Origin: Candidatus Binatia bacterium
GTDB taxonomy: Bacteria > Desulfobacterota > Binatia > DP-6
NCBI GenBank assembly: GCA_046327955.1
Contig: JAXLXP010000007.1
Coordinates: 56,029 to 120,028, forward strand
Length of the DNA: 64,000 nt
Direction: 5' to 3'
Shown here piece by piece: positions 5,236 to 64,000 of this stretch. Each line of letters opens with the position of its first letter. Position 1 is the stretch's first letter. The position numbers and the translations under genes are program-made. The notes beneath the pieces are model-generated. The model did no database searches. It was given only the letters and a program-made list of their open reading frames with translations, and had not been told where the DNA came from.

Positions 5236-7428
5236 TCAGAACGTGAAGTCGTCGGGCAGGTTCCAGAAGGCCCGCAGCTCCGTCGCATATCCCGGCGAGA
5301 GCTGCATCGCGGTCCGCCACATCTCGGTCACCGGCGGGGCCATGTTCTCGCCCGCCCGGATCTTCTCGCGCTCCTGCCGCCACCAGTCGCGGAACGGCAC
5401 GCCGCGCTGCTTGCGCGCCGCGCGAATCTCGTCGCGACGGCGGGCCGTGGCCGCCGCGTCGACCGTCCACTGCCCCGCGCCGTCACGGCGGGCGACGACC
5501 CCATGGACCTCGAGCGCCACGCGGTCCCGCGTGAAACCGTTCTCGAGGTCCGTCCGCACCAGCTCCGGGTCGCGCTCGATCGGGTCACCCTGGGCCTGCG
5601 CGCCGGAAACGGGATGGATCACGACGTCGTACTCGTGCAGCGCCTCGGGCACGACGAACGGTGCGATCGCGTTCGTCTCGAGTACCTTGGCGTGGATGTT
5701 CTCCGCGAGGTCCGGCTTCTCGGGGTCACCGCGCTCGTGCACCAACGGCTTCTGCGCCTCGATGAGCGCCTTGACGTTCGTGCCGCTCGCGAAGCTCGGC
5801 CGATCCGGCACCGCGGGGTACGCGCCGTACATCCCGTGGTTCGCCACCACCTTGCTCCGCATGCCGGCGCAGCCGCACTGATACTCGATCCCCGGCGTGT
5901 TCTTGATGAGCCACACCGCCGCGTGGCCGAGACCACCGCGGAACTTCCCGTACCCGCCCGAGTCGGCCTCGAGGTTCCGGCCGAGGTAGACGATCGGGTA
6001 GTAGAGCTCCGTCACCTCCGCGTTCCCGAAGTCCGCGTTGGGCGTGTAGATGCACCACGCGCTGTTCTCGCCGTCCGCCATGCCGCGCGCGGGCGCGCCG
6101 TTGCACGCCTGCTCGAGGGTGAGGCCGGCCGTGTACATCCCGTACTGGTTCGTGCCCGAGAACTCGGCCGTGAGCGTCGTCGCCGCCCCTGCGGCCATCT
6201 CCTCGACGAAGCCGCGGCTGAAATAGAAGCGGCCGAACACCTCGTAGAGACCGCTCAACCAGCACACGCCCGGTGCCCAGGCCACGCCGGAGGACGCGAA
6301 GTAGTTGACCGGGTACGGGTTGGCCCACGACCCGGCCGGCGGCGTCTCGAGCTGCCAGGCCGCGACGCAGCCCCAGTTGAACATGTCGAAGCCGACGATG
6401 TGCGAGTAGCCGTTCATGAGCGCGGAGATGATCGCCGGCGGCGTGATGTTCTCGCCGAACGGCACCCAGCCGCTCGCGCCGGGCAGCGCGAAGGTGACCT
6501 TCGCGTCGGCTCGGATCGTGACGTCCATCGGCAGGTGGAACAGGCAGTCGATGTTCTGGCTCGGCAGGATCACGCGCTTGCCCGCCATCGCCAGGTCCTT
6601 GAAGTTCGACTTCCGGATCCGGCCCGGAACCGTCTGGGACCTCACGCGCGCCACCGCGTAGCGGCGGCTGTCCTCGATGTACTCGCGCGCCGCGTCGCGG
6701 AAGAAGTCGACGCCGTACTTGTCGATGAGCGCGACCAGCCGGTCACGGAGCGTGAGGCAGCCCGCGAGCCGCCCGCGCGCGTCGCCCATCACCCAGTCGG
6801 GCACCCGGGTGCACGAGCGCATCCGTTTCTCGTACCATTTGTAGAACCGGTCGTGCTCGCCGACGCGCTCCATCGTCACCGGAACGCCGTCGCTGAAGCA
6901 GTCGGGGTTGATGAAGCCGATCGAGCCCGGCAGCACGAAGCCGGAGTCCATCACGTGCGTGACCGAGCCCGCCCACGCGACCAGCTCGCCCTTGTAGAAG
7001 ATCGGCACCGTGGTCTGGAAGTCGGGGGTGTGGATGCCGCCGTAGTGCGGGTCGTTGTTCTCGAAGATGTCGCCGGGGCGGATCCCGGGATCCTCCTCGT
7101 AGCCCTCCTCGACGTACCGTCGCAGCAGCATCGAGATGAGCCCGGGATGGGAGACGATCCCCTTGGATGCGCAGATCGCCTCGCCCGTCGGCAGGTGCAG
7201 GCTCCACAGCGCGTCGCCGCCCTCGGCGGCGATCGGCGAGGACGAGACCTTGCAGCCGACGACCCAACCCGCGTCGCAGATGTTGAGGAGGATGTGCCAC
7301 ATGGCTTCGTACGTGCCCGGGTCCTCCTCCTTGCGACGCATGCGCTCGAGGCCGAACAGATGCCCCGTCTCGCGCAGCCCCCGGTCGTTCCGCTCGAGCT
7401 GCTCCTTCAGCGAAAGCGTGCCGCTCAC
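5236..7428 (-). CDS. Hydantoinase B/oxoprolinase-family subunit, acetone-carboxylase alpha-like
   Basis: 730-aa ORF with a 4-nt overlap with the HyuA-like gene. The order HyuA-HyuB-gamma matches acxABC. Confidence 0.85.
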   Translation of the reverse strand: MSGTLSLKEQLERNDRGLRETGHLFGLERMRRKEEDPGTYEAMWHILLNICDAGWVVGCKVSSSPIAAEGGDALWSLHLPTGEAICASKGIVSHPGLISMLLRRYVEEGYEEDPGIRPGDIFENNDPHYGGIHTPDFQTTVPIFYKGELVAWAGSVTHVMDSGFVLPGSIGFINPDCFSDGVPVTMERVGEHDRFYKWYEKRMRSCTRVPDWVMGDARGRLAGCLTLRDRLVALIDKYGVDFFRDAAREYIEDSRRYAVARVRSQTVPGRIRKSNFKDLAMAGKRVILPSQNIDCLFHLPMDVTIRADAKVTFALPGASGWVPFGENITPPAIISALMNGYSHIVGFDMFNWGCVAAWQLETPPAGSWANPYPVNYFASSGVAWAPGVCWLSGLYEVFGRFYFSRGFVEEMAAGAATTLTAEFSGTNQYGMYTAGLTLEQACNGAPARGMADGENSAWCIYTPNADFGNAEVTELYYPIVYLGRNLEADSGGYGKFRGGLGHAAVWLIKNTPGIEYQCGCAGMRSKVVANHGMYGAYPAVPDRPSFASGTNVKALIEAQKPLVHERGDPEKPDLAENIHAKVLETNAIAPFVVPEALHEYDVVIHPVSGAQAQGDPIERDPELVRTDLENGFTRDRVALEVHGVVARRDGAGQWTVDAAATARRRDEIRAARKQRGVPFRDWWRQEREKIRAGENMAPPVTEMWRTAMQLSPGYATELRAFWNLPDDFTF

Positions 7429-39521: not shown

Positions 39522-39563
39522 ATGACGAACAGGCACGACGTCGACAGCTGGCGTTTCCTGTGA
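39522..39563 (+). CDS. 13-codon leader ORF (MTNRHDVDSWRFL) coupled to the downstream GTG start
   Basis: A strong AGGAGA lies 5 nt upstream of the ATG. Its TGA overlaps the GTG at 39560 (cctGTGAacc). Confidence 0.3.
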   Translation: MTNRHDVDSWRFL

Positions 39564-40015
39564 ACCCGACTACCCAACTCGCCGAATCCGCGCCCGCCAT
39601 CGCCGCCGCCATGCGAGCCGAGCAGGTGCACGGCGCGGTACTCACGCCCGTTTGACCGGACTGCTGCCGGTCCGTTGGACTGGTCGCACGCGTGATCGAG
39701 GAGGCGGGGGTGCCAACCGTCGTTTTGAACATGATGCCCGCTTACCAGCCCTCGGTCGGCGCGCCGCGCGTTGCCGCGATCTCATATCCTTTCGGCCGCC
39801 CGTACGGGAACGTCGGCGATGCCGACTTGCAGCGCGCGGTGCTCCGGGCGGCGCTCGGGGTGCTCGAGACGGCGCGCACGCCGGGCGAGGTCGTCCATCT
39901 CCCCTTCCGCTGGCCCGAGGACCCGAAGGCAACAAACTGGGCGCCCGACAAGCCCTCGCCGATCACGGCGATGATGCTGAAGGCTCGGCGGTGCCCCTGG
40001 CGCATGCGGTCCTGA
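39560..40015 (+). CDS. Candidate selenoprotein: GrdB C-terminal-domain-like small protein with in-frame UGA (39653-39655) in a U-P-D-C redox motif
   Basis: Read through the TGA: VNPTTQLAESAPAIAAAMRAEQVHGAVLTPV-U-PDCCRSVGLVARVIEEAGVPTVVLNMMPAYQPSVGAPRVAAISYPFGRPYGN... This follows the glycine reductase protein B pattern around its Sec (U-x-x-C...E-x-AGIP-V...VGA-x-R...P-x-G-x-P). A hairpin lies 11 nt after the UGA. A paralogue is at 63642+. Confidence 0.55.
39667..39683 (+). promoter_or_regulatory. SECIS-like hairpin (7-bp stem CCGGTCC/GGACTGG, loop GTT)
   Basis: Starts exactly 11 nt after the TGA. A G and U are in the apical loop. The same architecture occurs in the paralogue. Confidence 0.45.
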
Positions 40016-44397: not shown

Positions 44398-45522
44398 CTA
44401 CCGCGTCCCGACCACGGCGAAGACGGCGACCCCAAGAGCCGCCGCAGCGGGCACGGTCACGACCCAGGCAAGGACCATTCCATGCACGGTCCTCCAGTTG
44501 ATCGCCCCTCGTTCGGCGCCGGCGGCGATGATCGCCCCCGATGACACGTGGGTGGTCGACATCGGCAGTCCGCCGACCGCCCCGGCGGTGACGACCGCCG
44601 CCGTCACGAGGTTAGCCACGAATCCACCGCGATGGTCGAGCCGCGTGACCTTCTCGGCCAGGACGTTGGTCACCCGGCGGCCGCCGACGAGGCTCCCCGC
44701 AACCATGCCGAGCGTGGCCAGCACGAACATCAACGACGGGGCCACGGGCGATCCGCCGGAGAGCGCCGAGGCCGCCAACATGAGCGCGACTATCTTGGGG
44801 GCATCATTCATGCCGCGGGCGAAGCTGGTCGCGCCGCTCGTGAGCCAGTGCACATGGTCGACGGTCAGGCGGAGCGCCGTCGGCCGTTCGGTGGCGCAGG
44901 CGACCTGTGTTCCGATGGTGATTCGGGCCTGCAAGCCCTGCGCAACCAGGGCGGCCGTGTTGGACGCGCCCACCGGCACCAGCGATGGCTCGATCTCGGT
45001 GCAGAGGCAGTCCGCCGGCTCAGCCGCCGGAGACGTCGCAACGGAGGCCACGCGAAGCAGCAGCAGCGTCACGACGAGCGACACGACGGGGCTGAGCAGC
45101 AGCGGCAGGACGACCTTCCCGCCGATAGCGACCCAGTTGATCCCGTGGAAGCCGTAGGCGACCGCGCCGACGCCGGCAATCGCACCGACGATCGCGTGGG
45201 TCGTCGAGACCGGCAGGCCGGAGCGCGTCGCGATCAGCACCCAGGCGGTGGCACCGAGGATGGTCGCGAGCGCGGCTGCAAAGGTCGGCGGGGTTCCGGG
45301 CGCCAGCAGCCCGTTGCCGAAGGTGGACACCATGGCCCACGCCAGACTCCCACCCGTCAGCCCACCGAGGGCCGTGCAGAGTGCGCCCCAGCGGATGGCG
45401 CGGCGATAGTCGCTCACGCCGCTTCCGACCAGGGTTGCGATGCCCTTCGAGACGTCGTTGGCCCCGTTCGCGAGGGCAACGAGGAAGCCTGCAACGACGA
45501 CGATGGAGCCTGCGGAACTCAT
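44398..45522 (-). CDS. PiT-family inorganic phosphate (arsenate-permeable class) transporter
   Basis: ATG at 45522: MSSAGSIVVVAGFLVALANGANDVSKGIATLVG...ARGMNDAPKIVA, the two PHO4 repeats. Confidence 0.9.
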   Translation of the reverse strand: MSSAGSIVVVAGFLVALANGANDVSKGIATLVGSGVSDYRRAIRWGALCTALGGLTGGSLAWAMVSTFGNGLLAPGTPPTFAAALATILGATAWVLIATRSGLPVSTTHAIVGAIAGVGAVAYGFHGINWVAIGGKVVLPLLLSPVVSLVVTLLLLRVASVATSPAAEPADCLCTEIEPSLVPVGASNTAALVAQGLQARITIGTQVACATERPTALRLTVDHVHWLTSGATSFARGMNDAPKIVALMLAASALSGGSPVAPSLMFVLATLGMVAGSLVGGRRVTNVLAEKVTRLDHRGGFVANLVTAAVVTAGAVGGLPMSTTHVSSGAIIAAGAERGAINWRTVHGMVLAWVVTVPAAAALGVAVFAVVGTR

Positions 45523-46504
45523 GGTCCCCCCAGTGCGCCGCCACAGCTCGACCCGGCGCCGGCCGTACACCGAAGCAGTGGCTGGCCGTCGCGACCGGTT
45601 GGCCGGCGAGCCCGTCAATTGAATCGACTCCCCAGATCGTTCGAGCTCCCGTCTGGCGGGTCGCCCCGAGCGGGATGTCGAGCATCTGGTTGAAGTCACA
45701 GTCGTAGAGGCGCCCGTCCCAGCCGACGCTCACCAGCGACCGGCACATGAGCGCCGGCACAGTGGCAGGATTGAAGTGGTTCACGAGCAAGCCCATGTAC
45801 GCGTCGAGCCAACCCTCGCGAGCGAGCGCGTCGGCGAATCGCTTGATCGGCATGTTCGTGATGGTGAGGAGCCGGCGGAACTCGATCCCGAAGCCTCGCC
45901 GTAGTTCCTCTCGATACCGCGCCTCGAGTTCCTGCTGGCACGGCGGAAGGAAGGCGCCCACCGGGTTGTAGACGAGGTCAAGCACGAGGTCGGAGCCCGG
46001 GCGGCCGTATCCGAGCGCGTTCAACCGCTGGAGTGCCTCGATGCTCTTGTCGAACACCCCCCCGCCTCGCTGCTTGTCCACGTTGCCCGCGCTGTAGCAG
46101 GGCAGGCTCGCGACCACCTCGACGGCGTTCTCGGCGAGGAACTCGGCGAGGTCCGCCATGCCCGGTTCGAGGAGCACGGTGAGATTGCAGCGATCGATCA
46201 CGTGCCGGCCAAGCCGCCGCGCCTCCGCCACGAGCCAGTGGAAGTTCGTGTTCAGCTCCGGCGCGCCGCCGGTCACGTCGACGACCTCCACGTCCGGACT
46301 GCCCTCAAGCAGCTCGATGACGCGCGCGGCGACCGGTCGACCCATCATCTCGGTCCGCTTCGGCCCCGCGTCGACGTGGCAGTGATGGCACGCCTGGTTG
46401 CAGCGCTTGCCCACGTTCACCTGCAGGGTGGTGACCCGCTCGCGCGCGAGCGGCGCGAGCCCGTGCTGCGCGAGGGCGCGGTCGAAGTCCGCCGCGGCCG
46501 TCAA
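45519..46504 (-). CDS. arsS: Arsenosugar-biosynthesis radical SAM protein ArsS (radical SAM/Cys-rich domain family), with an apparent 1-nt deletion 17 codons before the stop
   Basis: TTG at 46504 (TTGA overlap with the arsM stop): (M)TAAADFDRALAQHGLAPLARERVTTLQVNVGKRCNQACHHCHVDAGP... The main frame ends ...ATASHCFG. The expected tail CTAGAGSSCGGALGGP-stop lies in the -1 frame and terminates in an ATGA overlap with the PiT start. The span is 986 nt, not a multiple of 3. Confidence 0.8.
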
Positions 46505-47691
46505 CAGCAGCTTCCGCCCTTGGCGGCATTCCCGCCGCACCCGTTGCCGACCGCGTCGGTCGTCACGCGATACTCCTGGCCCTTCGTCTCCCGCGGATGG
46601 CGCTCGAGCGCTTCCCCCGTGCACGGAAACGCGGGCGCATCCTCGAGGGGGATCAGCACGCGCGGCGGGATGAGTTCCAGGTGCGCGCGGTAGGGCTCCT
46701 GCGAGTAGATGCGGAACGTCTTCTCACAGACGGCCGTTCGCATACCCCTACGCAGCACGTGCCCGTCGTCGTCCTCCACCTGCCGGAAGGGGCCACGATA
46801 GACGACCGCGTGCTTCTGGTCCCAGCACGGCCCCTCCTTGCCCTTGTAGGCCGCGACTGTCACGCTCCGAAACTCGATGCCCTGGACTGTCCGCCAGGGC
46901 TCGGTCTGGCGCTCAAGGAGCGTCACGCCGTAGAAGCTTGCGGCTTCGAACGCGGCGAGGAAGATATCCTCACGCAGCGCCCCCGCGATGCAGCCGCTCC
47001 AGAGTTCCGGGTCTCGCTGGATGGGCTCCGGGACATCCTCATCGCTCACGATGTCGGAGATGACGGCCCGCCCGCCGCGCCGCAGCACGCGGAAGATCTC
47101 AGCAAAGAGCTCTCGCTTGTCCTCTGGGCGCACGAGGTTCAGGACGCAGTTGGAGATGACGACGTCGACCGACTGGTCCGCCACCAGCGGTCGAAGACGC
47201 CGCTGCTCCGCAATCCGCGCCTCCAGGCGTGCGAGGTCCGTCTCCGAGCGAACGGGTTCCGCGCGCAGGAGATCGTCGAGCCACTCGCGGTCGAGGCGCA
47301 GGTCCTGGATCTTCCCCTTCTGGAAGCTCGTGTTCGCATAGCCGACCCGTCGGGCCACCTCGGGGGCGTTCCGGCGCGCCACCGCGAGCATGTCGTCGTT
47401 CATGTCGACGCCGATGACCCGCCCGGTCGGGCCGACCACCTGGCTCGCGAGGAAGCACACCTTGCCGCTGCCCGAGCCCAGATCCAGCACGGTCTCGCCT
47501 GGCCCCACGTGTCGCGTTGGATCGCCGCAGCCGTAGTCCCGCGCCAGCACCTCTTCGGGGAGTGCGGCGAGCAACCGCGAATCGTACGAGGTCGGACAGC
47601 AGAGCGCCGGCTCCGCCGTCCGCGCGCCTGCGGAGTAGCGCTCTCGAACGGCAGCCTCGACGTCGATCCCTTGTTGAGCCTGCTCGGACAT
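46501..47691 (-). CDS. arsM: Arsenite S-adenosylmethionine methyltransferase
   Basis: GGGAGGAAG RBS then ATG at 47691: MSEQAQQGIDVEAAVRERYSAGARTAEPALCCPTSYD...DYGCGDPT...VLDLGSGSG..., with a Cys-rich C-terminus. Confidence 0.9.
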   Translation of the reverse strand: MSEQAQQGIDVEAAVRERYSAGARTAEPALCCPTSYDSRLLAALPEEVLARDYGCGDPTRHVGPGETVLDLGSGSGKVCFLASQVVGPTGRVIGVDMNDDMLAVARRNAPEVARRVGYANTSFQKGKIQDLRLDREWLDDLLRAEPVRSETDLARLEARIAEQRRLRPLVADQSVDVVISNCVLNLVRPEDKRELFAEIFRVLRRGGRAVISDIVSDEDVPEPIQRDPELWSGCIAGALREDIFLAAFEAASFYGVTLLERQTEPWRTVQGIEFRSVTVAAYKGKEGPCWDQKHAVVYRGPFRQVEDDDGHVLRRGMRTAVCEKTFRIYSQEPYRAHLELIPPRVLIPLEDAPAFPCTGEALERHPRETKGQEYRVTTDAVGNGCGGNAAKGGSCC

Positions 47692-47704
47692 GTCTTCCTC
47701 CCGT

Positions 47705-48511
47705 TCAGGAAACTGCGAGGATGCCATCCTCGATCCAGCGGAGCAGGAGCTGCGCCGCTTCGCGCACCGCCTCCTCCGAGCCCACCACCGACTCCAGGGC
47801 CGCACACACGCTGGCGAACGGCTCGCCGCAAATCACACGCCCGAGGGCCAGATGCTCCTCCACACCCATGCTTGCCTGGTACACCATGAATCCATCACGC
47901 CAGACCCGAAGCGACGTCCTCGTCGGGCGTACGCCCTCGGGAGGCCCGCCCTCCTCGGCGGCCGCCCACAGCTCGTGGACCGGCCAGGCGCTGTGGAGGA
48001 GCTGGACCGCCGGCACCAACCGGAAGATGAGGCGCGGCCACTCCGGCAGCGCGACCGCACCCAGGTCGTCGACGCGCAGCCGTTGCGCGTCGGGCGCATC
48101 GAAGACCGCCAAGCGGGCCCACTCGAGCCGCGCGAGATCGGCTAGAAACGGCAGCCCCTCGATCTCGGGTCCCAGAGCAAGGAACGCCGCAAACCGCTCG
48201 CCGACGTGCCGAACGGACGGGTGCAGCGACGGGTTCCGCGCCAGGTAGGTGCGCACTACAGCGTCAAACCGCTCCGCACCGAGGATCGCCGCCACGCGCG
48301 GGAAGTCCTCGCTCAGCACGTCGTGCAGCCGTGCCCAGTACATCTGCGCGTAGATGTCGAGGCGGTCTACGGGCCCCAGCGGCCCTCGCCCCTCCACCAC
48401 CCGCACGAGGGCCGGGTCAAACTCCTCCGACGCTGACGGCCCGGGGCTCGCCGCGATCGAGCGGAAGAAGGACGTCTGCAGGTCATGCAGAGCGAGCACG
48501 GGCACCTCCAA
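47705..48511 (-). CDS. bufC: DUF2063 protein (BufC/HvfC-type partner of the MNIO enzyme)
   Basis: 268 aa: ...LQTSFFRSI...DRLDIYAQMYWARLHDVLSEDFPRV... Overlaps the DUF692 gene by 29 nt. Confidence 0.85.
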   Translation of the reverse strand: MEVPVLALHDLQTSFFRSIAASPGPSASEEFDPALVRVVEGRGPLGPVDRLDIYAQMYWARLHDVLSEDFPRVAAILGAERFDAVVRTYLARNPSLHPSVRHVGERFAAFLALGPEIEGLPFLADLARLEWARLAVFDAPDAQRLRVDDLGAVALPEWPRLIFRLVPAVQLLHSAWPVHELWAAAEEGGPPEGVRPTRTSLRVWRDGFMVYQASMGVEEHLALGRVICGEPFASVCAALESVVGSEEAVREAAQLLLRWIEDGILAVS

Positions 48512-49331
48512 TGACCTCCGTTTCTACGGCGCGGGCGCACTCCGCTTCCGCGCACAGGACCTCCCATTCGGGGATCTGATCGTCCCACTCGACGAGCGTG
48601 GAGACGGGGCCGAAGCGGCGCAGCGCCAGGCGATAGAGGTCCCACACCGCGGGGACAACGTGTCCGTCGTGCGTGTCGAGGAGATGCGTCCCCTTGTCGC
48701 TGTGGCCCGCCAGGTGGATCTGGCCGACCCGATCGGCGGGCATGGCCATCACGTAGGCGGCCGCGTCGAACCCGTGGTTCACGCTGCTCACGTAGACGTT
48801 GTTCACATCCAACAGGATGCCGCAGTCGGCGCGCTCGGCGATCTCGGCCAGAAACTGCCACTCGGGCATGACCGAGTGCTTGAAGGTGAGGTAGCTCGAG
48901 ACGTTCTCGACGAGGATCTGCCGATTGAGCCGATCCTGCGCCCGCCGCACTCGCTCCACGACGTGCGTCAGCGCCTCCTCGGTATACGGCAGCGGCAGCA
49001 GGTCGTGCGCGTAGTGGCCGCCGATGCTGCCCCAGCAGAGGTGATCCGACACCCACGCAGGCTCGAAGCGATCCGCCAGCACGCGGAGCGCGGTGAGATA
49101 GGTTTCGTTCAGGGGATCGGTCGAGCCGAGCGACAGCGACACGCCGTGAAGGACGAGCTGGGCCAGCGCCCGGGCCCGCTCGAGCACCGCCAGCGGCCGG
49201 CCGCCCCGGATCATGAAGTTCTCCGAGATCGCTTCGAACCAGTCGATCTGCGCCGTGCCCTCGAGCACGCGGGGAAAGTGCTTCGTGCGCAGCCCGACGC
49301 CGTGACCGAGATATGGAACGATGCACGCCAT
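48483..49331 (-). CDS. bufB: DUF692 / MNIO (multinuclear non-heme iron oxidative) enzyme, MbnB/BufB-type
   Basis: MACIVPYLGHGVGLRTKHFPRVLEGTAQIDWFEAISENFM...VSDHLCW...ILVENVSSY...LLDVNNVYVS...IHLAGH. The start is either the ATG at 49331 or the track start at 49352. Confidence 0.9.
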   Translation of the reverse strand: MACIVPYLGHGVGLRTKHFPRVLEGTAQIDWFEAISENFMIRGGRPLAVLERARALAQLVLHGVSLSLGSTDPLNETYLTALRVLADRFEPAWVSDHLCWGSIGGHYAHDLLPLPYTEEALTHVVERVRRAQDRLNRQILVENVSSYLTFKHSVMPEWQFLAEIAERADCGILLDVNNVYVSSVNHGFDAAAYVMAMPADRVGQIHLAGHSDKGTHLLDTHDGHVVPAVWDLYRLALRRFGPVSTLVEWDDQIPEWEVLCAEAECARAVETEVIGGARARSA

Positions 49332-49407
49332 CTGCGTTTCCCTCTTCGACACCCGGAGGCGGTCGGGTCCCTGGCTGTCAGCCAGGGACCCTCCCCGCGA
49401 TCGCTCA

Positions 49408-51609: not shown

Positions 51610-52266
51610 GTGAGCGACCGTCGGGGCGCCCTCTGCGTCTTTGCCAAGCCCCCTATGCCTGGACGGGTCAAGACGCGGCTCGTGCCGGCCCTGGGGGTCG
51701 AGGGGGCGGCCCATCTCGCACATGCTGTTCTCTGCGATACCTGGTCCAGCGCCCGGGCCCTTCCCTGGGCCAGTCCTATCCTCGCCACGACCCACGTCTT
51801 CCCGCCCGCCCTCCGGCCCGCACCGGATGCCGTCGTGTGGATGCAGGGCAGCGGAGACCTGGGACGCCGCATCGAGCGGATCCTCGCCCGCGCGCTCGGG
51901 CGCTTCCCGTTCGCGATCGCACTCGGCGCGGACACGCCCGGCCTGCCCGTCCGGTTCCTCGAGGAAGCACGGGTGGCACTCGGCTCGGCCGACGCGGTTG
52001 TCGGTCCCACGGAGGACGGTGGCTTCTATCTCCTGGGCCTCAGGCGGTGTCCGCGGGGCCTCCTCGCCGGCCTGCCGTGGAGCGATCGCGACACTTGCGC
52101 GCGCACGCTCGAGCGGCTACGGGCCCGCGGACTCATCACCGTCGTCCTGGATTCGTGGTTTGACATCGACCGCCCGGAAGATCTGGACCGCTTGCGGGCA
52201 CTCCTTGGGCGCGGCGAACTCGCGGCGCCGGCGACATGCCGGGCGCTGGGGCGGACGCAGGCCTGA
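51610..52266 (+). CDS. TIGR04282-type (DUF2064) arsenosugar-associated glycosyltransferase
   Basis: GTG at 51610: VSDRRGALCVFAKPPMPGRVKTRLVPALG...GDLGRRIERI...IALGADTPGLP...VVGPTEDGGFYLLGL... Confidence 0.8.
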   Translation: MSDRRGALCVFAKPPMPGRVKTRLVPALGVEGAAHLAHAVLCDTWSSARALPWASPILATTHVFPPALRPAPDAVVWMQGSGDLGRRIERILARALGRFPFAIALGADTPGLPVRFLEEARVALGSADAVVGPTEDGGFYLLGLRRCPRGLLAGLPWSDRDTCARTLERLRARGLITVVLDSWFDIDRPEDLDRLRALLGRGELAAPATCRALGRTQA

Positions 52267-53003
52267 AGCTGTCCTGGCGGAGACGCAGGCGCCAGACGCC
52301 GCCCGCCGCGCGGCCGGGCGGCATCTCGATCATCGTTCCCGTCATCGACGAGGAGCGCCGCATCGGGCAGCGCCTGAAGGAGCTGCGCGGAACCCCGGAC
52401 GTGGCCGAGGTGATCGTCGTCGATGGCGGGAGCAGAGACCGCACGCTGGAGATCGTGCGAGGATGTCCAGGGGTGCGCCTGCTTGCAGCGCTGCGGGGTC
52501 GTGGCGTGCAGATGAACGCGGGCGCCAGGGCTGCGTCGGGCGACGTGCTCCTTTTCCTGCACGCAGACGTCTCCCTTCCCCCCGATGCCACCGCATGCGT
52601 CGCCCGGGCACTCGCCGCTCCGGAGGTGGTCGCAGGAGCGTTTCGCACCTGGACCGTCGACGATGCCGGCCGCTCCTGCCTCACACCGCTCTTGCATCTC
52701 GCGGATCTGCGCTCGCGCGTCGCGCGCTTGCCGTACGGGGATCAGGCGGTCTTCGTTCGTCGCGAAGCGTTCGTGCGTGTCGGTGGCTTCCCCGACCAAC
52801 CGCTCATGGAGGACCTCGAGCTGGCGCGCCGCCTGAGGAGAATCGGGCGGATTGTCGTGGTACCTGCCGTCGTCCGCGTCTCCGGACGCCGCTTCCTCGC
52901 CCATCCACTGTCTGCCATTCTGACCATGCGACTGTTCCCGCTCCTGTATCGCCTGGGTGTCTCGGCGCGGGTACTCGACCGGCTCTACGGGCGCCCGCGC
53001 TGA
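52236..53003 (+). CDS. TIGR04283-type family-2 glycosyltransferase (arsenosugar-associated)
   Basis: ISIIVPVIDEERRIGQRLKEL...VIVVDGGSRDRT...LLFLHADVSLP...LPYGDQAVFVRREAF...MEDLELARRLRR. Confidence 0.85.
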   Translation: MPGAGADAGLKLSWRRRRRQTPPAARPGGISIIVPVIDEERRIGQRLKELRGTPDVAEVIVVDGGSRDRTLEIVRGCPGVRLLAALRGRGVQMNAGARAASGDVLLFLHADVSLPPDATACVARALAAPEVVAGAFRTWTVDDAGRSCLTPLLHLADLRSRVARLPYGDQAVFVRREAFVRVGGFPDQPLMEDLELARRLRRIGRIVVVPAVVRVSGRRFLAHPLSAILTMRLFPLLYRLGVSARVLDRLYGRPR

Positions 53004-53020: not shown

Positions 53021-53155
53021 TCAGCGCCGCAGCGCGCGCCATCGCTCGAAGAGCCGCCGGACGCGCGGGGTGAGCCGGCTCCGGCTGTAGGCGTCCCCGG
53101 CATTCTTCATCACCTCCGCCTGGGTGGGGTACGGATGGATCGCGGCCGCGATCGT
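53021..53155 (-). pseudogene. 3' remnant (~45 codons) of a pyridine nucleotide-disulfide oxidoreductase (dimerisation-domain tail)
   Basis: The minus-strand tail reads ...TIAAAIHPYPTQAEVMKNAGDAYSRSRLTPRVRRLFERWRALRR-stop. The upstream part is replaced by repeat copy B. Confidence 0.5.
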
Positions 53156-53289
53156 TGGATGCAGCTCCGGTGTCGGTGTCGTACGGCACACCCGTGCAAC
53201 AGCCGAACCGTCCCCCGCATCAAGACATCGGGCACCCATGGACCGCCAACCCGCCGAGATCGTTGACGATCGATCCTTCCCCACCCGCG
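53153..53289. repeat. Copy B of the ~138-bp direct repeat (functional promoter/5' end of the thioredoxin-like gene)
   Basis: See 51432-51570. Confidence 0.8.
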
Positions 53290-55152: not shown

Positions 55153-56611
55153 CCACCCGTTTCAAGGTGTCTTCTTGGTCCGTGCCGCCGCCATGAGCCG
55201 CGCCGTGGAGTGATGGCGCTGGGCGACCCTCCGCGCGACGTAGCCTTTGGGCGCGGGTACCTTGGGCGCGCGCCGACTCTTCCGCACCGTGGCGATGTTC
55301 AGTCCCGCCGCGGTCTTCCGCAGCAGGGCCGCGAAGCGCGCGTCGCCGAGGGCGTCCCAGGGGGCCCAGTCGGTGGTGTCGGTCGCGATCGCGAAGCCCT
55401 GGTACCTCGCACGGATCTCGACCGCCACGTGATACGACGACACGGCCGGGACGTCCCCGTCGACCGTGTGGGTCGCTTCGACCGCGCGGCGCACTACCTG
55501 GAGCACATTGAACGCCAAGACCGCGAGCCCAAACGCGAACAGCGCCGCCTTCGGCTGGCCGAGCGTGCGCAGCCCGCCGGCCAGCGCGGCTTCGAGTTCG
55601 CCGAACATCCCCTCGATCGTCCACCGCCCACGGTAGTGCTCGGCGATCTCACGGGCCCGCAGCCGCGTGGCGGGCACGTTCGTCAGCAGCACGAGCGTGG
55701 TGGCACCATCCTGGGTCGGCGCGTCCGAGTGCACCCGGACCTGCCGGAGTGGCAGCGTCCGGCCATCGCTGCGCGTCATGGTGACCGGCTGTTCGTCCAC
55801 GGTCCCCGTGGCCGTGCGGCCACCGCGGCGGGGCATCCCCGACGCCACCACGATCGGCGAGCGCCCGTGCTTGCGCACGATGAAGACGGCGCCCTGGTCC
55901 GCAAACCCCTCGAACAAGCGCGTCGTGCTGAAATTCCGATCCGCCACCCACAACTGCCCGCGGGCAGCCAGGGCGACCAGCGCCTCCGTGAGCGAGCGCT
56001 CTTGGGCATGCGCGTCCTCACACGGGACGAGGTCCACCGCCAGCCCGAGCTGCGGATCGTAGACCACCAACGTGTGGCCGGGCAGCGCGGCGCCCCGCAG
56101 GCCGCGCAACGCCTTGAGCCGCTTCTCCGTCGCCGGCAAGTGATTGCCGTCGACGATGCGCACCGCGTACCCGCCGCCCCCCACTGCGGGCCCCGACCGT
56201 CAGCGCGGCGAGCACGCCGGCGAGTCGCTGCGCGCCGTCGCGGACCATTGCCCGCACCAGGGCGGGCTCCGTCCGGTTAATCTTGTCGTACAGCGCCGTC
56301 AGCGACACCGGGAGGGTGGCGCCCGCCGCTCGGACCGCCGCGTGAATCGACGGCCGGAACCCGAACGTGACCGAGGCGAGCAAATCCACGACCGTCGAGA
56401 ACAGCAGCGACCGGACGTACTGCCGCTCGGCGTGCTGGGCGAACAGCGCATCGAGCCACGGCGCCGCCAGCGCCCGCCGCAGCGTCAGGTGCGCCATTAC
56501 GGTCAGCGGACTCCGTTTGAGGAACCGCTCCACCACCGCATCCCACCCCATCCGCCACCTCCCACCCTCGAGGCAGCGCTACCTCACGGGGGGTCACCTT
56601 GAAAGGGGTGG
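55153..56611 (-). mobile_element. IS4-family-like insertion sequence
   Basis: 17-bp IRs CCACCCGTTTCAAGGTG (55153-55169) and CACCTTGAAAGGGGTGG (56595-56611), with 1 mismatch. Flanked by the 9-bp direct repeat GCCTTAGAG (55144-55152 and 56612-56620). Confidence 0.8.
55162..56551 (-). pseudogene. IS4-family DDE transposase with a frameshift at a C/G run near 56175-56185
   Basis: The N-terminal frame (MGWDAVVERFLKRSPLTVMAHLTLRRAL...) and the C-terminal frame (...GGYAVRIVDGNHLPATEKRLKAL...WVADRNF...HYRGRWTIEGMFGELE...) overlap. The span is 1390 nt, not a multiple of 3. Confidence 0.8.
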
Positions 56612-57603: not shown

Positions 57604-57653
57604 CCCCACATCACCACCCCCCGCACCGTCTACCACGTCTTGACCCCTACCGG

Positions 57654-59168
57654 TCGGAGTAGGGACCGCGGTCGCCCGCGGCCCCTCCACAGATCCGGAC
57701 GTGCGGCATTACCGCATCCGGCTCCTGCCTTGGGTGACGACGCCAAAGCGGACGAGGGGATACGGGTGACAGATGCGGACGGGCGGAAGCCACCGGTCGA
57801 TGTAGCGTTGCATCCGGCGCCACGGCAGGTGGTGCTGCTGGCTGCGGCGACGCAGGGCGCGCCACCACAGCCGTCCCACTGCTTGGCGGAAGGCCCCGAG
57901 CGCCGAGCCGTTCATCGGGACGCCGTAGTACCGCATATGGCCCCCAACAGCGGCCCGGAGTAGAGATTGGCCAGGAGCGGGCTGATGCTGCCCCCCTGGA
58001 CTGTACCGCTCTCCCTCTGTGTTCGCTTCCCCTCCTCCAGCACGCCGGCCCACAGCCATTTCTGGATGAGGCGCACGACGCGCCGGTCCCCCACACGGTG
58101 CTCGAGAAACTTCACCAGCCATCCGTGGTCGAGGGTATCGAAGAAGCCACGGATATCGGCATCGAGCACCCAGTTCACCCTCCTCGTCGAGAGCCCGACC
58201 GTGAGCGCGTCCAGAGCCTGATGCGGATTGCGTCGCGGTCGGAATCCATACGAGAAACCGAGGAAGTCGCCCTCGTAGATGGCGTTGAGCACCTCAACGA
58301 CGGCGCGCTGGACGACCTTGTCTTCCAGCGCGGGAACGCCGAGCGGCCGCAGCCGCCCGTCCGCCTTCGGGATGTACACTCTACGCACTGGCTTCGCCCG
58401 GTACGCCCCCCGTTGGAGCCGGCCGGAGAGGTCCTGCAGATGCGCTTCCAGATTCTCTCCGTAGTGCCGCCACGTCTCGCCATCGATGCCAGCAGCCGCA
58501 TCACGTTTGAGCTCCCAGTAGGCTGCCCGCAACCGCTCGATGGCGTACACGTGGTGAAGGAGCGCGGTGAACCGCTGCTGCCTGTCTCTCCTCGCTGCCT
58601 GCCGTACCCGCTCGAGCGCGCTGAGCGTGCTTCCCCGGCTCTGCGTCCGGCGCGCGTTACGCTCGGGCGAGTTCCCCTTGGCCAGCCCCCTTCCCTCCAC
58701 CACCTCCGCGGCCGGTTCCTCGGCGTTGTTCGGTGGCTTCCCGGGTACTACGAGGCTGTCCGACTTCCCGCGTCCGTCCATCATCGGCGTACGTCCTCGG
58801 ACTTCCCGATGCGGCCGGCGGTCCCCTCGACCGCCGGCAGACGCGGGACCTCCCGGTTCCCGTGCGAGGTGCATCCGTACATGCGTGGGGTCTTCGACCG
58901 CGCGGGGTCCTGGGACGCCTCGCGCTCCCGGCGCCCCCGGTCTGGCCTTCCGCGTCTATCCACCGCGTCGGCACCCCGGAGTACCCGCCGCTTGCGCAGC
59001 GGGGTAAGAGATTTCGCGGCTCAATACCCAGCCTGCACGTACCCCTGCCAACGCTTCACCTCCGCCCTCACGGGCGACGGCGCATGACTCAGCGTCAGAG
59101 CGGATCGCTACTCCTTTCTCTGTGTGGCTCTTTCATCCACGACACCTCGCCGGTTTGTACCGGCGCAC
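57654..59168 (-). mobile_element. Group II intron with internally deleted reverse-transcriptase/maturase ORF
   Basis: 5' end GTGCGCC (59168 downward). Domain V GAGCCGGATGCGGTAATGCCGCACGTCCGGATC (57692-57724). Domain VI helix GGGGCCGCGGGCGACCGCGGTCCCTAC with a bulged A. 3' end ...CCGAC at 57654. The IEP frame (58784 downward) reads MMDGRGKSDSLVVPGKPPNN...LRPLGVPALEDKVVQRAV...GGSISPLLANLY, then jumps frame to ...GHMRYYGVPMNGSALGAFRQAV; the YADD region is missing. Confidence 0.8.
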
Positions 59169-59441: not shown

Positions 59442-59590
59442 ACGGCGCTGGTGCTCTCGGGGGGCGGCATCACGGGGTTTCTCTACCAGATCGGTGTGCG
59501 CGCTGCGCTCGCGCACGCCGTACCACCCGGGCCGTTCAACGAACACTTCGATCTCTTCGTCGGGACCAGCGCGGGAGTGGTCACGGTCGC
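59442..59590 (+). pseudogene. Patatin-like phospholipase gene, continuation, truncated after ~45 codons
   Basis: ALVLSGGGITGFLYQIGVRAALAHAVPPGPFNEHFDLFVGTSAGVV. It then runs into the opposite-strand hydrolase remnant. Confidence 0.55.
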
Positions 59591-59965
59591 GACGGCCACC
59601 GCTTCCGGCACCCGCGCCGCGGCCGCCAGCACCGCAGCACCGCCCAGGCTGTGGCCAACGAGCAGCTTGGAGGCCCGGTACCGCTCGCGCAGGAAGCGCG
59701 TCGCCGCCACTATGTCGTCCACGTTCGAGGAGAAATTCGTATTGGCGAACTCCCCTTCGCTGCTGCCGAGCCCCGTGAAGTCGAAGCGCAGGACCGCGAT
59801 GCCCCGCTCTGCCAACGCGCCGCTGATGCGTGCGGCGGGGAAAAGGTCTTTGGAGCAGGTGAAGCAGTGGGCGACCACGGCGTGGGCGATCGACTCGCCG
59901 GGAGGCAGATCGAGTCGGGCCGCCAGCAAGACTTCCTGCAACCCCAGAAAACCTGACCTTCTCAC
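59483..59965 (-). pseudogene. Alpha/beta hydrolase (N-terminal module of the hydrolase/OsmC bifunctional type), 3'-truncated
   Basis: ...HAVVAHCFTCSKDLFPAARISGALAERGIAVLRFDFTGLGSSEGEFANTNFSSNVDDIVAATRFL...LLVGHSLGGAAVLAAAARVPEAVAVATV, then non-homologous tail sequence. Confidence 0.6.
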
Positions 59966-62253: not shown

Positions 62254-63552
62254 TCATGACCTGGGCCGCCGCCCCAGGCTCCACTTGAGCGCGGGCGGGG
62301 TCATCATCGTTGTCATGATCACCATGACGACGACAGCGGAGAAGGTAGTATCGTCGATCACGCGTCGGCCGCCGACATAGAGCGAGAGCCCGATGTTGGC
62401 GAAGATGAGGCCCACCTCGCCGCGAGGGATCATCGCGATTCCGACGGTCAGCCGGTCAACGCCCTTGCCCAGAACCCCGAGGGAGCAAGCCTGCTTTCCA
62501 AGGATGGCGACGACCGTGAGCGCAACGGCAAGCCCGAGGACTCCTGGTTGTGCAAATGAACGAAGATCGGTCCGCATCCCCATGACCACGAAGAAGATCG
62601 GCACGAGGAACGAAGAGATCGGATGGATCAGATCCTCGAGACCGTGCTCCCCGCGGTCCACGAAATCTCGGTAGTGAACCTGCTCCAGGATGAGGCCAGC
62701 GGCAAAGGCTCCAACGATGGGCGCGAGCCCGATGAGGTTGGCGAGCCAAGAGAGCAAGAAGCAGAACGCGAGGCCGATCGCGAGCAGGACGCCACGCGTG
62801 CGCAGCTTGGAGGCGAGCGAGAAGAGCTTTCGCGAGAACAGCACGCCCAGCGCCAACGAGACGACGAGGAACCCGGTCGCTTCGCCAAGCACCCAGAGGA
62901 CGTCGACCGGCGCGAGGCTGCCGCCGCGATTGGCGGCGCCGATGACCCCGGTGACCACGGCCAGAATGACGAGCCCGAGCACATCGTCGATGACCGCCGC
63001 CCCGAGGATGACGCGCGCCTCGTCCGACTGCGAGCGACCGAGGTCTTTGAGGACGCGGGCCGTGATGCCCACGCTCGTGGCGGTGAGGGTGGCGCCGATG
63101 AACGCGTGGACGCAGGGACCGTGGGAAGGCAACAGCCAGGCTCCCACACCCCAGCCCAGAGCGAACGGCGTGACGACCCCGAGGATCGCCACGAGGAGTG
63201 CGGACCAGCCGACCTTGAGCATCTGACCAACCGTCGATTCGAGCCCGACCTCGAACAGGAGGACGAGAACACCGACCCGAGCGAACATGTCGATGAACGG
63301 GTCCGTCTTGATCGGCTCGACCCCCGAGAAGCCGGCGAGCGTGAGGTTCCCAAGGACGACGCCGATGATAAGCTCGCCGAGCACGGCCGGCTGGCCGATC
63401 CGCACCACCAGGTCGCCGCCGACCTTGGCTGCGAGCAAGATGACGACGAGCCAGAGCGCCACCGAGGCAACCGGATCGGCGTGCCCCCCTCCCTCCGATG
63501 CGTAGGCGGGAACGGCGAGCACGAAGCATCCGATCGCGGCGGCTATCTTGAT
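62254..63552 (-). CDS. CPA2-family cation:proton antiporter; start unclear (ATC 63552 with signal-like leader, or GTG 63522 / 63462)
   Basis: ...VALWLVVILLAAKVGGDLVVRIGQPAVLGELIIGVVLGN...VGLES...GAAVIDDVLGLV. There is no ATG. (M)KIAAAIGCFVLAVPAYA/SEGGGHADP would be a signal-like leader beginning at an ATC, preceded by AAGGGAG. Confidence 0.8.
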   Translation of the reverse strand: MKIAAAIGCFVLAVPAYASEGGGHADPVASVALWLVVILLAAKVGGDLVVRIGQPAVLGELIIGVVLGNLTLAGFSGVEPIKTDPFIDMFARVGVLVLLFEVGLESTVGQMLKVGWSALLVAILGVVTPFALGWGVGAWLLPSHGPCVHAFIGATLTATSVGITARVLKDLGRSQSDEARVILGAAVIDDVLGLVILAVVTGVIGAANRGGSLAPVDVLWVLGEATGFLVVSLALGVLFSRKLFSLASKLRTRGVLLAIGLAFCFLLSWLANLIGLAPIVGAFAAGLILEQVHYRDFVDRGEHGLEDLIHPISSFLVPIFFVVMGMRTDLRSFAQPGVLGLAVALTVVAILGKQACSLGVLGKGVDRLTVGIAMIPRGEVGLIFANIGLSLYVGGRRVIDDTTFSAVVVMVIMTTMMTPPALKWSLGRRPRS

Positions 63553-63611
63553 TAGGCTCCCTTCACGGTTCCGGTCGCCTGCTCCTCGCCGATCAGTTTG
63601 ATCGTCGCCAT
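63552..63611 (-). CDS. 19-codon upstream ORF (MATIKLIGEEQATGTVKGA), possibly a CMD/AhpD-like N-terminal remnant or a coupling leader
   Basis: Strong GGGAGGAGGAA RBS 4 nt before the ATG at 63611. Its TAA overlaps the ATC at 63552 (TAATC). Confidence 0.3.
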   Translation of the reverse strand: MATIKLIGEEQATGTVKGA

Positions 63612-63641
63612 GTCGTTCCTCCTCCCGTGCTGCGTTCCAGT

Positions 63642-64000
63642 TCACCGTCGTGGCACCGGCCCCGGCATCATCGCGAGCGCCGGCACCGCGGTTGCAAGGC
63701 AGAGCTCCAGCAGTGCCCGCAGGATCGCTCGCTGCCGTGGCGGGTCGTCCAACGCTCCGAGGGGGTAGCCCAGGGGATAGGGCACCGCGAGCGCACGGGG
63801 CGGCCGCACCTTCCTGGTGATCTCCGGGAGCAGCGTCAACGAGGCGGTCACGATCCCCCGTCGCTCCAGCTCCACCTGGACCAGGCCAACGACCTGGTGA
63901 CACATGGGTCACACCGGCACCAGGAGGGCCACGTCGACCTCGTCGTCCACCAGGAGTGTCGCGGCCTTCGGCGCCGTGTCGCGGATCAGCCGGCCTGGTG
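63642..64000 (-). CDS. Candidate selenoprotein, GrdB C-terminal-domain-like, paralogue of 39560-40015; in-frame UGA at 63909-63911; 5' end outside the window
   Basis: Minus strand: ...[100 protein letters not shown]... The track shows only the part after the TGA. Confidence 0.55.
63880..63898 (-). promoter_or_regulatory. SECIS-like hairpin (ACCAGGTC/GGCCTGGT, loop GTT)
   Basis: Starts 10 nt after the TGA. Loop and position match the hairpin at 39667-39683. Confidence 0.45.

Follow-up and report, generated by a model that had tools for sequence, protein, structure and literature searches.

A probable stand-alone GrdB/PrdB-family selenoprotein with a hairpin behind its in-frame UGA codon in Candidatus Binatia

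We analysed a stretch of 64,000 nucleotides from Candidatus Binatia bacterium (NCBI GenBank assembly GCA_046327955.1, contig JAXLXP010000007.1, positions 56,029 to 120,028), here called the window, which ends within a minus-strand gene with an in-frame TGA codon. Very probably this gene encodes a stand-alone selenoprotein of the GrdB/PrdB family with 249 residues, in which a hairpin directly behind the UGA recodes it as selenocysteine (Sec); the protein would have a redox role, and the ion transporter gene beside it would be an incidental neighbour. Two open reading frames (ORFs) of 160 and 87 amino acids reported by gene callers are thus one selenoprotein gene, and the same mis-annotation is found in many database entries.

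Gene structure and the in-frame TGA codon

The minus-strand ORF 63642..>64000 constitutes the 3' 359 nt of the PrdB-like selenoprotein gene, which is cut by the end of the window at position 64000. Around the Sec codon the minus strand reads ...CTG GTG CCG GTG TGA CCC ATG TGT CAC CAG GTC GTT GGC CTG GTC..., and the translation through the TGA at 63909-63911 includes ...PYPLGYPLG...PRR* and ends at the stop codon 63644-63642. Both the TGA and the read-through peptide had been described in a preliminary description of this stretch, made from the sequence alone, and are found as they were given there.

The same description had named the reading frame beyond position 64000 as a test, in which stop codons close to the UGA would speak against a selenoprotein. 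The missing 5' end is contained in the Logan contig L001 (2,607 nt), which shares with the window the identical 87-aa ORF and a 100% identical cation:proton antiporter (CPA) gene and of which 472 nt beyond the window are readable. Ahead of the TGA, L001 has 160 open codons that begin with an ATG, equivalent to window coordinate 64391, with which the full N-terminus is recovered. The whole gene would span 63642-64391 (750 nt plus stop) and encodes 160 aa, Sec and another 88 aa, that is 249 residues, and the window copy retains every residue that is invariant in the family. Of the two products reported by gene callers the one of 160 aa is labelled PF07355 GRDB, and the NCBI title of this N-terminal fragment is 'MAG: glycine/sarcosine/betaine reductase selenoprotein B family protein [Candidatus Binatia bacterium]', where MAG stands for metagenome-assembled genome.

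The gene itself ends in TGA, so TGA is a stop codon in the host genome and the internal TGA needs recoding. An alternative genetic code with TGA as a sense codon is ruled out by the gene's own terminator.

Conservation of the UGA codon

The search of the protein collections gave 3,524 relatives, whose lengths we judged on the best 120. Most of these best 120 are ~160 aa long with a query coverage of 64% and end at the same codon, where the gene callers cut them, and roughly thirty are full length with 244-286 aa. An alignment of 17 full-length relatives shows PV-C-P-x-C, with a Cys at the UGA position, in all but one of them (16/17), the exception being P0002.

At the DNA level, a scan of species-representative genomes detected 548 matching stretches, of which the best 80 loci were examined. 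These best 80 belong to Myxococcota, Acidobacteriota (Thermoanaerobaculia and Holophagae), Binatia, Gemmatimonadota, Nitrospirota, Planctomycetota and others. Together with L001 they contain 82 gene copies, and all 82 have a TGA at the homologous codon, with a conserved protein sequence on both sides of it. A metagenome scan that was seeded with the Cys-form proteins likewise returned TGA in 79 of 80 loci. Among the pooled DNA copies TGA is present in 164 of 167 and a Cys codon in three. Such a TGA, conserved across phyla where homologues have a redox Cys, is what characterises selenoproteins.

The relative P0002 is the closest full-length one (70% identity), and in its gene in L176 (8001-8735) the Sec codon is replaced by CGA (Arg). 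In this copy the hairpin is disrupted (CAC GAG instead of CAC CAG), and changes are found at residues which are otherwise invariant. It is probably a copy which has lost Sec and is decaying. The Binatia MAG contig L077 carries two copies of the selenoprotein gene, at 6466 and 10649 and thus 4.2 kb apart, both with the TGA and the hairpin.

The hairpin and its compensatory changes

The hairpin at 63898-63880, with a stem of 7-8 bp, starts 10 nt past the UGA and has a GTT loop, as the preliminary description had stated. Its further proposal that the hairpin is the recoding element is supported by a conserved codon register and by compensatory changes at the pairs 25-33 and 21-37. The numbering is that of the alignment A3, in which 66-nt stretches around the TGA are aligned without gaps, with the TGA in columns 7-9, the stem formed by columns 20-26 with 32-38 and the loop in columns 27-31. 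Columns were counted on 153 distinct sequences.

The core stem columns are paired in ~90% or more of the sequences, and the loop positions G28 and U29 are retained in 152 and 151 of the 153, respectively. Pair 25-33 is AU in 90 sequences, GC in 50, GU in 10, UA in two and AC in one, and pair 21-37 is CG in 113, UA in 28, GG in eight, CA in three and CC in one. For the two main states of each pair, Fisher tests without phylogenetic correction yield 1e-28 (pair 25-33) and 8e-27 (pair 21-37). All four combinations of the two pairs are present, hence the switches arose more than once. In both cases a synonymous third position is coupled to an amino acid replacement on the other arm: GGU/GGC tracks Thr/Ala, with GGU when the stem partner is A and GGC when the partner is G, and CAC/CAU tracks Val/Ile. 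Codon usage in high-G+C genomes would not be expected to produce such a coupling. The number of doubly changed cells in the structure-pair count is 48, compared to 18.3 ± 2.9 in shuffles, and RNAalifold on its own puts the top of the hairpin at the same columns.

The Cys forms point in the same direction. The two distinct Cys-form DNAs have fold energies of -4.0 and -2.8 kcal/mol, compared to a mean of -13.0 for the Sec forms, and the Cys-form proteins do not retain the Q-T/A-V-G-L-V/I residues that encode the stem. When folded as a single sequence, the window hairpin is not significantly more stable than shuffled sequences (z = -1.25, with 19 of 200 folding as well, at 69% G+C). Thermodynamics alone therefore proves nothing, and the case for the hairpin rests on the comparison. 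Taking codon and hairpin together, we have high confidence that the gene encodes a bona fide UxxC selenoprotein with a bacterial selenocysteine insertion sequence (SECIS), as judged from comparative sequence evidence.

In a subclade with the motif U-P-x-C-M-Q (L024, L026, L030, L035, L036, L043, L055, L070 and L074), the pairs 20-38 and 21-37 are broken (A3 columns 16-39). The carriers are Sulfomarinibacteraceae and other Acidobacteriota, and U-P-V-C-M-Q with a shifted lower stem is also found. In these sequences TGCA could pair with TGCA around a 5' bulge and so form the lower stem of a variant SECIS.

Family membership

The full protein, with Cys in place of the UGA, matches the Pfam family GRDB (PF07355) with 35.3 bits against a cut-off of 22, with residues 15-158 aligned to positions 203-345 of the 347 of the profile. 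With this score and with TGA in 164 of the 167 copies, the assignment as a GrdB/PrdB-like UxxC selenoprotein in the preliminary description holds. The Pfam search with the window fragment alone gave only noise below the GRDB cut-off, because the GRDB model stops just ahead of the Sec.

The NCBIfam model of PrdB (TIGR04483) reaches 114.7 bits over profile positions 21-217 of 238, below its equivalog cut-off of 300. All models of protein B score below their cut-offs as well, with 39.4 bits vs 602 for TIGR01917, 53.2 vs 800 for NF040794 and 45.8 vs 775 for NF040795, and so does TIGR01918 with 38.3 vs 65.45. The motif of the window protein is U-P-M-C-H-Q-V, which agrees with UxxC and lacks the third Cys of UxxCxxC. 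By these profile and motif comparisons, the window gene is a PrdB/GrdB-like selenoprotein gene but no equivalog of PrdB or GrdB, since the scores lie far under the cut-offs, the partner genes are absent from nine Pfam-labelled contexts and UxxCxxC is absent.

The paralogue at 39560 and the neighbouring ion transporters

A second gene of this kind lies at 39560 on the plus strand. The preliminary description had called the two genes colinear, and BLASTP aligns them with 43% identity over 79 residues (E 2e-18). The hairpin of the 39560 gene, CCGGTCC-GTT-GGACTGG, is in the same codon register as the one at 63880-63898, and its relatives are likewise cut short in the databases. Two intact loci (L087 and L088) show that the family has ~294 residues, consisting of 178-182 aa with the GRDB match, the UGA and ~115 aa. 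In the window (39522-40015) an ATG at 39522 opens MTNRHDVDSWRFL*, which matches the family N-terminus MSNPIEVDSWRFV of L087. What follows is out of frame and resumes at ...QLAESAPAIAAAMRAEQVHGAVLTPV-U, with ~130 codons missing compared to L087 and L088. The 39560 gene is evidently an internally deleted remnant.

Both genes have an ion transporter gene behind them. A Na_H_Exchanger (CPA) gene (199.7 bits) is found ~119 nt downstream of the PrdB-like gene on the same strand, followed by MgtC and LCAT-like hydrolase genes, and a Voltage_CLC (ClC) gene with a TrkA_C domain is found ~130 nt downstream of the 39560 gene, again on the same strand. From two paralogues sharing a UGA, a hairpin and such a transporter, the preliminary description had concluded that the arrangement is unlikely to be chance and had hinted at a redox/selenium-dependent accessory to ion transport. 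The TGA and the hairpin are indeed conserved, with compensatory changes, and the position of both genes upstream of same-strand transporters is true in the window, but this adjacency was not seen in other loci. We compared the CPA and ClC proteins of the window by blastp to the ORFs of at least 100 aa in 81 loci, 69 of which have at least 1.5 kb of downstream sequence, and L001 was the sole match. A tblastn search of 175 related loci, whose flanks cover 4-6 kb, detected nothing beyond L001 and the window itself. The preliminary description had named a lack of this linkage in other genomes as a refutation, and the loci compared here give that outcome. None of nine contexts with Pfam labels has a transporter directly adjoining the gene, and the neighbours are varied; the nearest transporter there is an Nramp gene in divergent orientation, two genes away (L175). 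The intact paralogues are followed not by ClC but by a gene of the DsbA family in L087 and by one for a methyltransferase in L088, which, together with the deletion in the 39560 gene, weakens the argument from two paralogues.

The window is rearranged, with DDE transposases, a group II intron, a truncated alpha/beta-hydrolase gene, an oxidoreductase fragment, the deleted 39560 gene and a frameshifted ArsS gene. In a window so rich in mobile elements and broken genes a chance juxtaposition with transporters is plausible. The transporter adjacencies are best read as products of rearrangement and the CPA gene as a lineage-specific neighbour. If the downstream transporter (CPA, or ClC for the paralogue) had the selenoprotein as its redox- or selenium-dependent accessory subunit or regulator, this would explain why both GRDB-like genes in the window precede a transporter gene on the same strand. 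We nevertheless find such a role barely credible, given that 175 related loci have no CPA or ClC homologue besides the identical L001, that no transporter directly adjoins the gene in the nine labelled contexts, that one of the two genes is a remnant, that gene order here is visibly rearranged by transposases, the intron and gene fragments, and that the start codon of the CPA gene is unclear, with a stray ORF of 19 codons in front of the gene. The ion-transport hypothesis can be dropped, which spares follow-up effort.

The PrdB-like and CPA genes are separated by a spacer of 119 nt (63523-63641, minus strand), which contains this 19-codon ORF (MATIKLIGEEQATGTVKGA*) and then the A+T-richer cctaatcaagatagcc. 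The CPA frame has no ATG, and the called GTG start lies inside an apparent signal peptide. The spacer may be a rearrangement scar. The group II intron and the truncated alpha/beta-hydrolase gene lie side by side on the minus strand (57653-59133 and 59483-59965). The intron matches the Rfam families RF02005 (157 bits) and RF00029 (42.5 bits) and carries a reverse-transcriptase ORF at 57912-58874. A DDE transposase gene (55162-56184) and other ORFs resembling those of insertion sequences are found near it.

A FAD oxidoreductase and an ArsS-type cluster as recurrent neighbours in one subclade

Besides the transporters we looked at the genes upstream. In L169 a same-strand run of genes codes for a radical SAM protein with DUF3641, a VTT/DedA protein, a pyridine-nucleotide-disulfide oxidoreductase, a DUF2064 protein and a glycosyltransferase of family GT2, with the GRDB-like gene as the last. 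The oxidoreductase of L169 is FAD-containing (flavin adenine dinucleotide), matches NF004991 with 731 bits vs 620 and is also similar to MerA and lipoamide dehydrogenase. The stop codon of the TIGR04283-type GT2 gene overlaps the start codon of the GRDB-like gene as TGATG in at least the five loci L169, L003, L011, L004 and L022, and five further loci in the tblastn table show the same spacing of these two genes. In L001, positions 1-67 encode the C-terminus of a second oxidoreductase copy (...SRSRLTPRVQRLFAGWLALRR*), ending 13 nt before the ATG of the PrdB-like gene. The oxidoreductase ends upstream of the PrdB-like gene in the same way in the Myxococcaceae locus L005.

For cluster counts we ran tblastn with the L169 proteins on loci with at least 1.5 kb of upstream sequence, counting those with at least one cluster gene. 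These defined proteins replaced a clustering of raw ORFs as neighbours, which was noisy in high-G+C genomes because of ORFs in alternative frames. Within the U-P-x-C-H subclade, which by its motif includes the window gene, 16 of 33 loci have a cluster gene or the FAD oxidoreductase. A cluster gene is present in two of 28 loci with U-P-x-C-N and in none of seven with U-P-x-C-M. In the literature searched, no publication pairs arsenosugar or ArsS with GrdB, selenoprotein B, PF07355 or proline reductase. Among the associations of the gene, only that to the disulfide reductase and the ArsS-type cluster appears well supported, and it suggests a selenol/thiol reductase module.

The corresponding genes of the window are listed in Table 1 together with the features of the selenoprotein gene.

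Table 1. Features of the PrdB-like selenoprotein gene and of the ArsS-type cluster in the window
Feature	Position	Strand	Evidence or remark
In-frame TGA, read as selenocysteine, first residue of U-P-M-C	63909..63911	minus	aligned with the first Cys of PV-C-PxC in full-length homologues
Pro codon of U-P-M-C	63908-63906	minus	sequence
Met codon of U-P-M-C	63905-63903	minus	sequence
TGT, resolving Cys of UxxC	63900..63902	minus	Cys invariant at C164 of the alignment of full-length relatives
10-nt spacer CCCATGTGTC between UGA and hairpin		minus	sequence
SECIS hairpin (predicted)	63880..63898	minus	comparative sequence evidence
Hairpin 5' arm ACCAGGTC	63898-63891	minus	
Hairpin loop GTT	63890-63888	minus	
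Hairpin 3' arm GGCCTGGT	63887-63880	minus	
True stop codon TGA of the PrdB-like gene	63642..63644	minus	
TIGR04283 'arsenosugar biosynthesis' glycosyltransferase (GT2)	52236..53003	plus	213.4 bits vs 182
TIGR04282 (DUF2064) transferase	51631..52086	plus	115 bits vs 134, below cut-off; 152-aa matched segment only
ArsS radical SAM	45578..46489	minus	TIGR04167, 397.7 bits vs 300
ArsM-like methyltransferase gene	46504-47805	minus	
3' fragment of FAD-dependent disulfide oxidoreductase gene	53024..53180	minus	family set on the L169 protein

The oxidoreductase fragment in the window is convergent with the TIGR04283 gene and is cut on its 5' side beside a transposase-rich stretch. By eye, its last ~67 nt share roughly 90% identity with the 3' end of the L001 copy. 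The two copies suggest that the cluster has been duplicated and rearranged. The ArsS gene (45458-46531 on the minus strand) has a 1-nt deletion in a Gly codon of ...SHCFG|CTAGAGSSCGGALGGP*, 16 codons before the stop, which is due to either a genuine frameshift or a fault of the assembly. In SSCGG of ArsS the residue is a Cys encoded by TGT, not Sec. Between the ArsM-like gene and an extracytoplasmic function (ECF) sigma factor gene, 47708-49352 on the minus strand contains a gene for an MNIO-family bufferin maturase (NF050167, 377 bits) and one for an HvfC-like recognition protein of ribosomally synthesized and post-translationally modified peptides (RiPPs), forming a bufferin-type RiPP cluster.

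Proposed mechanism and alternative explanations

Following the established bacterial mechanism, SelB with Sec-tRNA(Sec) would bind the hairpin on the translating mRNA and deliver Sec to the UGA. The Sec and the Cys three residues further on would form a U-x-x-C redox pair, which cycles between selenol/thiol and selenenylsulfide. An AlphaFold2 model of the Cys homologue P0004, with a predicted local distance difference test (pLDDT) score of 91, has a strand at 154-158, the CPxC at 161-164 and a helix at 164-177; in this model the CPxC sits between a strand and the N-terminus of a helix, which is a usual location of a redox pair. In the PDB there is no sequence relative, and no significant fold match to the P0004 model was found (best E 4e-3, TM 0.36); the fold offers no hint of the function. 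The most likely reductant of the pair would be the FAD-dependent pyridine-nucleotide-disulfide oxidoreductase that is encoded immediately upstream. Judging from the recurrent neighbours, the substrate may, speculatively, be tied to the ArsS/ArsM/TIGR04282/TIGR04283 pathway and would not be D-proline or glycine, nor would the protein act in ion transport. A more specific proposal, which we consider unlikely on balance, is that in Myxococcota and Binatia the organoarsenical (arsenosugar-type) pathway of ArsS/ArsM has a selenol-based reductase module of its own, made up of the U-P-x-C-H selenoproteins and the adjoining FAD oxidoreductase. For example, such a module might supply the radical SAM enzyme ArsS with regenerated trivalent methylarsenic substrates. 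The link to the disulfide reductase and the ArsS-type cluster is in any case a concrete and testable lead to the real function of the family.

Several points weigh against parts of this explanation. The 64-kb window contains no tRNA gene, tRNA-Sec included, with selA, selB and selD not searched and the rest of the genome unread, and the Sec machinery of the host organism is therefore assumed. The Cys-form control for the hairpin consists of only three DNA copies with two distinct sequences, the stem lies within coding sequence and the covariation statistics carry no phylogenetic correction. In the literature we found no biochemical work on any member of the subfamily. The link to the ArsS cluster, which is seen in only roughly half the loci of one subclade and hardly at all in the others, could reflect the shared ancestry of a few lineages. 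In the window itself the ArsS cluster is 11-18 kb away from the gene, with mobile elements in between and ArsS frameshifted, and only the FAD oxidoreductase is adjacent.

Two further readings of the gene have to be considered. If the TGA were a real stop, there would be a pseudogene or two genes with products of 160 and 87 aa, and the hairpin would be a by-product of the codons. The annotation as two ORFs by gene callers, a hairpin that alone is no more stable, significantly, than shuffled sequence, the several decayed genes in the window and the CGA at the Sec codon of the closest full-length relative would all agree with this. A nonsense mutation, however, would not persist in 164 copies from several phyla at a single codon whose two flanks are conserved as protein, the covariation of stem third positions with replacement changes is unexpected from high-G+C codon usage, and every family-invariant residue is intact in the window copy. 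We consider a real stop extremely improbable. The protein could also be a genuine D-proline reductase PrdB or a Stickland reductase of the GrdB type, with a pyruvoyl PrdA/GrdE partner. TIGR04483 is its best NCBIfam match and is colinear over positions 21-217 of 238, size and UxxC are shared, and many members are named 'D-proline reductase (dithiol) PrdB' by JGI (Joint Genome Institute). This match is far under 300 bits, though, and the scores for GrdB, GrdF and GrdH are only 39-53 bits where 600-800 are required. In the nine contexts with Pfam labels, which are neighbourhoods and not whole genomes, there is no PrdA/GrdE, GrdA, GrdC/D or PrdC-type family. Moreover, the carriers are mostly Myxococcota, Acidobacteriota and Binatia from soil or sediment and not amino-acid-fermenting Clostridia. 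Such a reductase is, in our view, very improbable, and a stand-alone selenoprotein of the GrdB/PrdB family with a recoded UGA remains the best explanation of the whole.

Comparison with known selenoproteins

In bacteria the SECIS forms a hairpin within the ORF, directly on the 3' side of the UGA, with a G-U in its apical loop, as in the E. coli fdhF type and in the general model of Zhang and Gladyshev. The hairpins of the window type resemble this model, as their loop starts 17-18 nt past the UGA and holds the conserved G-U. They differ from these elements in the short loop of 3-5 nt and in having no obvious bulged U.

The selenoproteins B of the glycine, sarcosine and betaine reductases, GrdB, GrdF and GrdH (TIGR01917, NF040794 and NF040795), align with the window protein in their C-terminal half (~212-417 of 431), which includes the Sec site. 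The window protein differs from them in its length of ~250 vs ~430 residues and in its UxxC motif, the motif of GrdB being UxxCxxC (PMC13188914), and GrdA, GrdC, GrdD and GrdE are not among its neighbours.

PrdB is the 26-kDa selenoprotein subunit of D-proline reductase, as the passages on it in PMC1088965 and PMC13188914 report, citing Kabisch et al. 1999. The window protein is homologous to the PrdB of Clostridium sticklandii and C. difficile over nearly the full length, is similar in size (249 vs ~240 residues) and has the Sec in an equivalent U-x-x-C, and in both cases the SECIS lies within the coding sequence directly past the UGA. In contrast to PrdB, the window gene is carried by non-fermentative soil and sediment phyla, and its neighbours are the FAD disulfide oxidoreductase and the ArsS-cluster genes. 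PrdA, PrdC, PrdD and PrdE are not among the neighbours of window-type genes, and D-proline is unlikely to be the substrate of the window protein.

The closest comparison is with the selenoproteins named PrdB in environmental surveys. According to the relevant passages, 'Proline reductase PrdB (pfam07355, UxxC)' ranked third in abundance among the known selenoprotein families of the Sargasso Sea data (PMC1088965), and the PrdB-named family of the Global Ocean Sampling (GOS) survey comprised 235 selenoproteins and 110 Cys homologues, with U-x-x-C listed as the PrdB motif (PMC2398784). A 'proline reductase' selenoprotein is also listed, in the corresponding part of PMC1794560, for Anaeromyxobacter dehalogenans and Geobacter uraniumreducens. 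The searched passages of these three papers contain no discussion of the missing PrdA partner or of gene context, and there the role as D-proline reductase appears to be assigned by name only. An abundant environmental selenoprotein family has thus been named 'proline reductase' for twenty years with no PrdA partner in sight. It shares with the window gene the Pfam family and the UxxC motif, and Sec forms outnumber Cys forms both in the GOS data and here (164 to 3). In addition, the window gene has loci of the Anaeromyxobacter type (L007 and L015) among its closest relatives within the best 80 loci. As judged by Pfam family, motif and relatives, the window gene and the environmental PrdB family are most probably the same family. 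This selenoprotein family is therefore already known, having been counted as PrdB in 2005-2008, and the window gene is an additional member of it.

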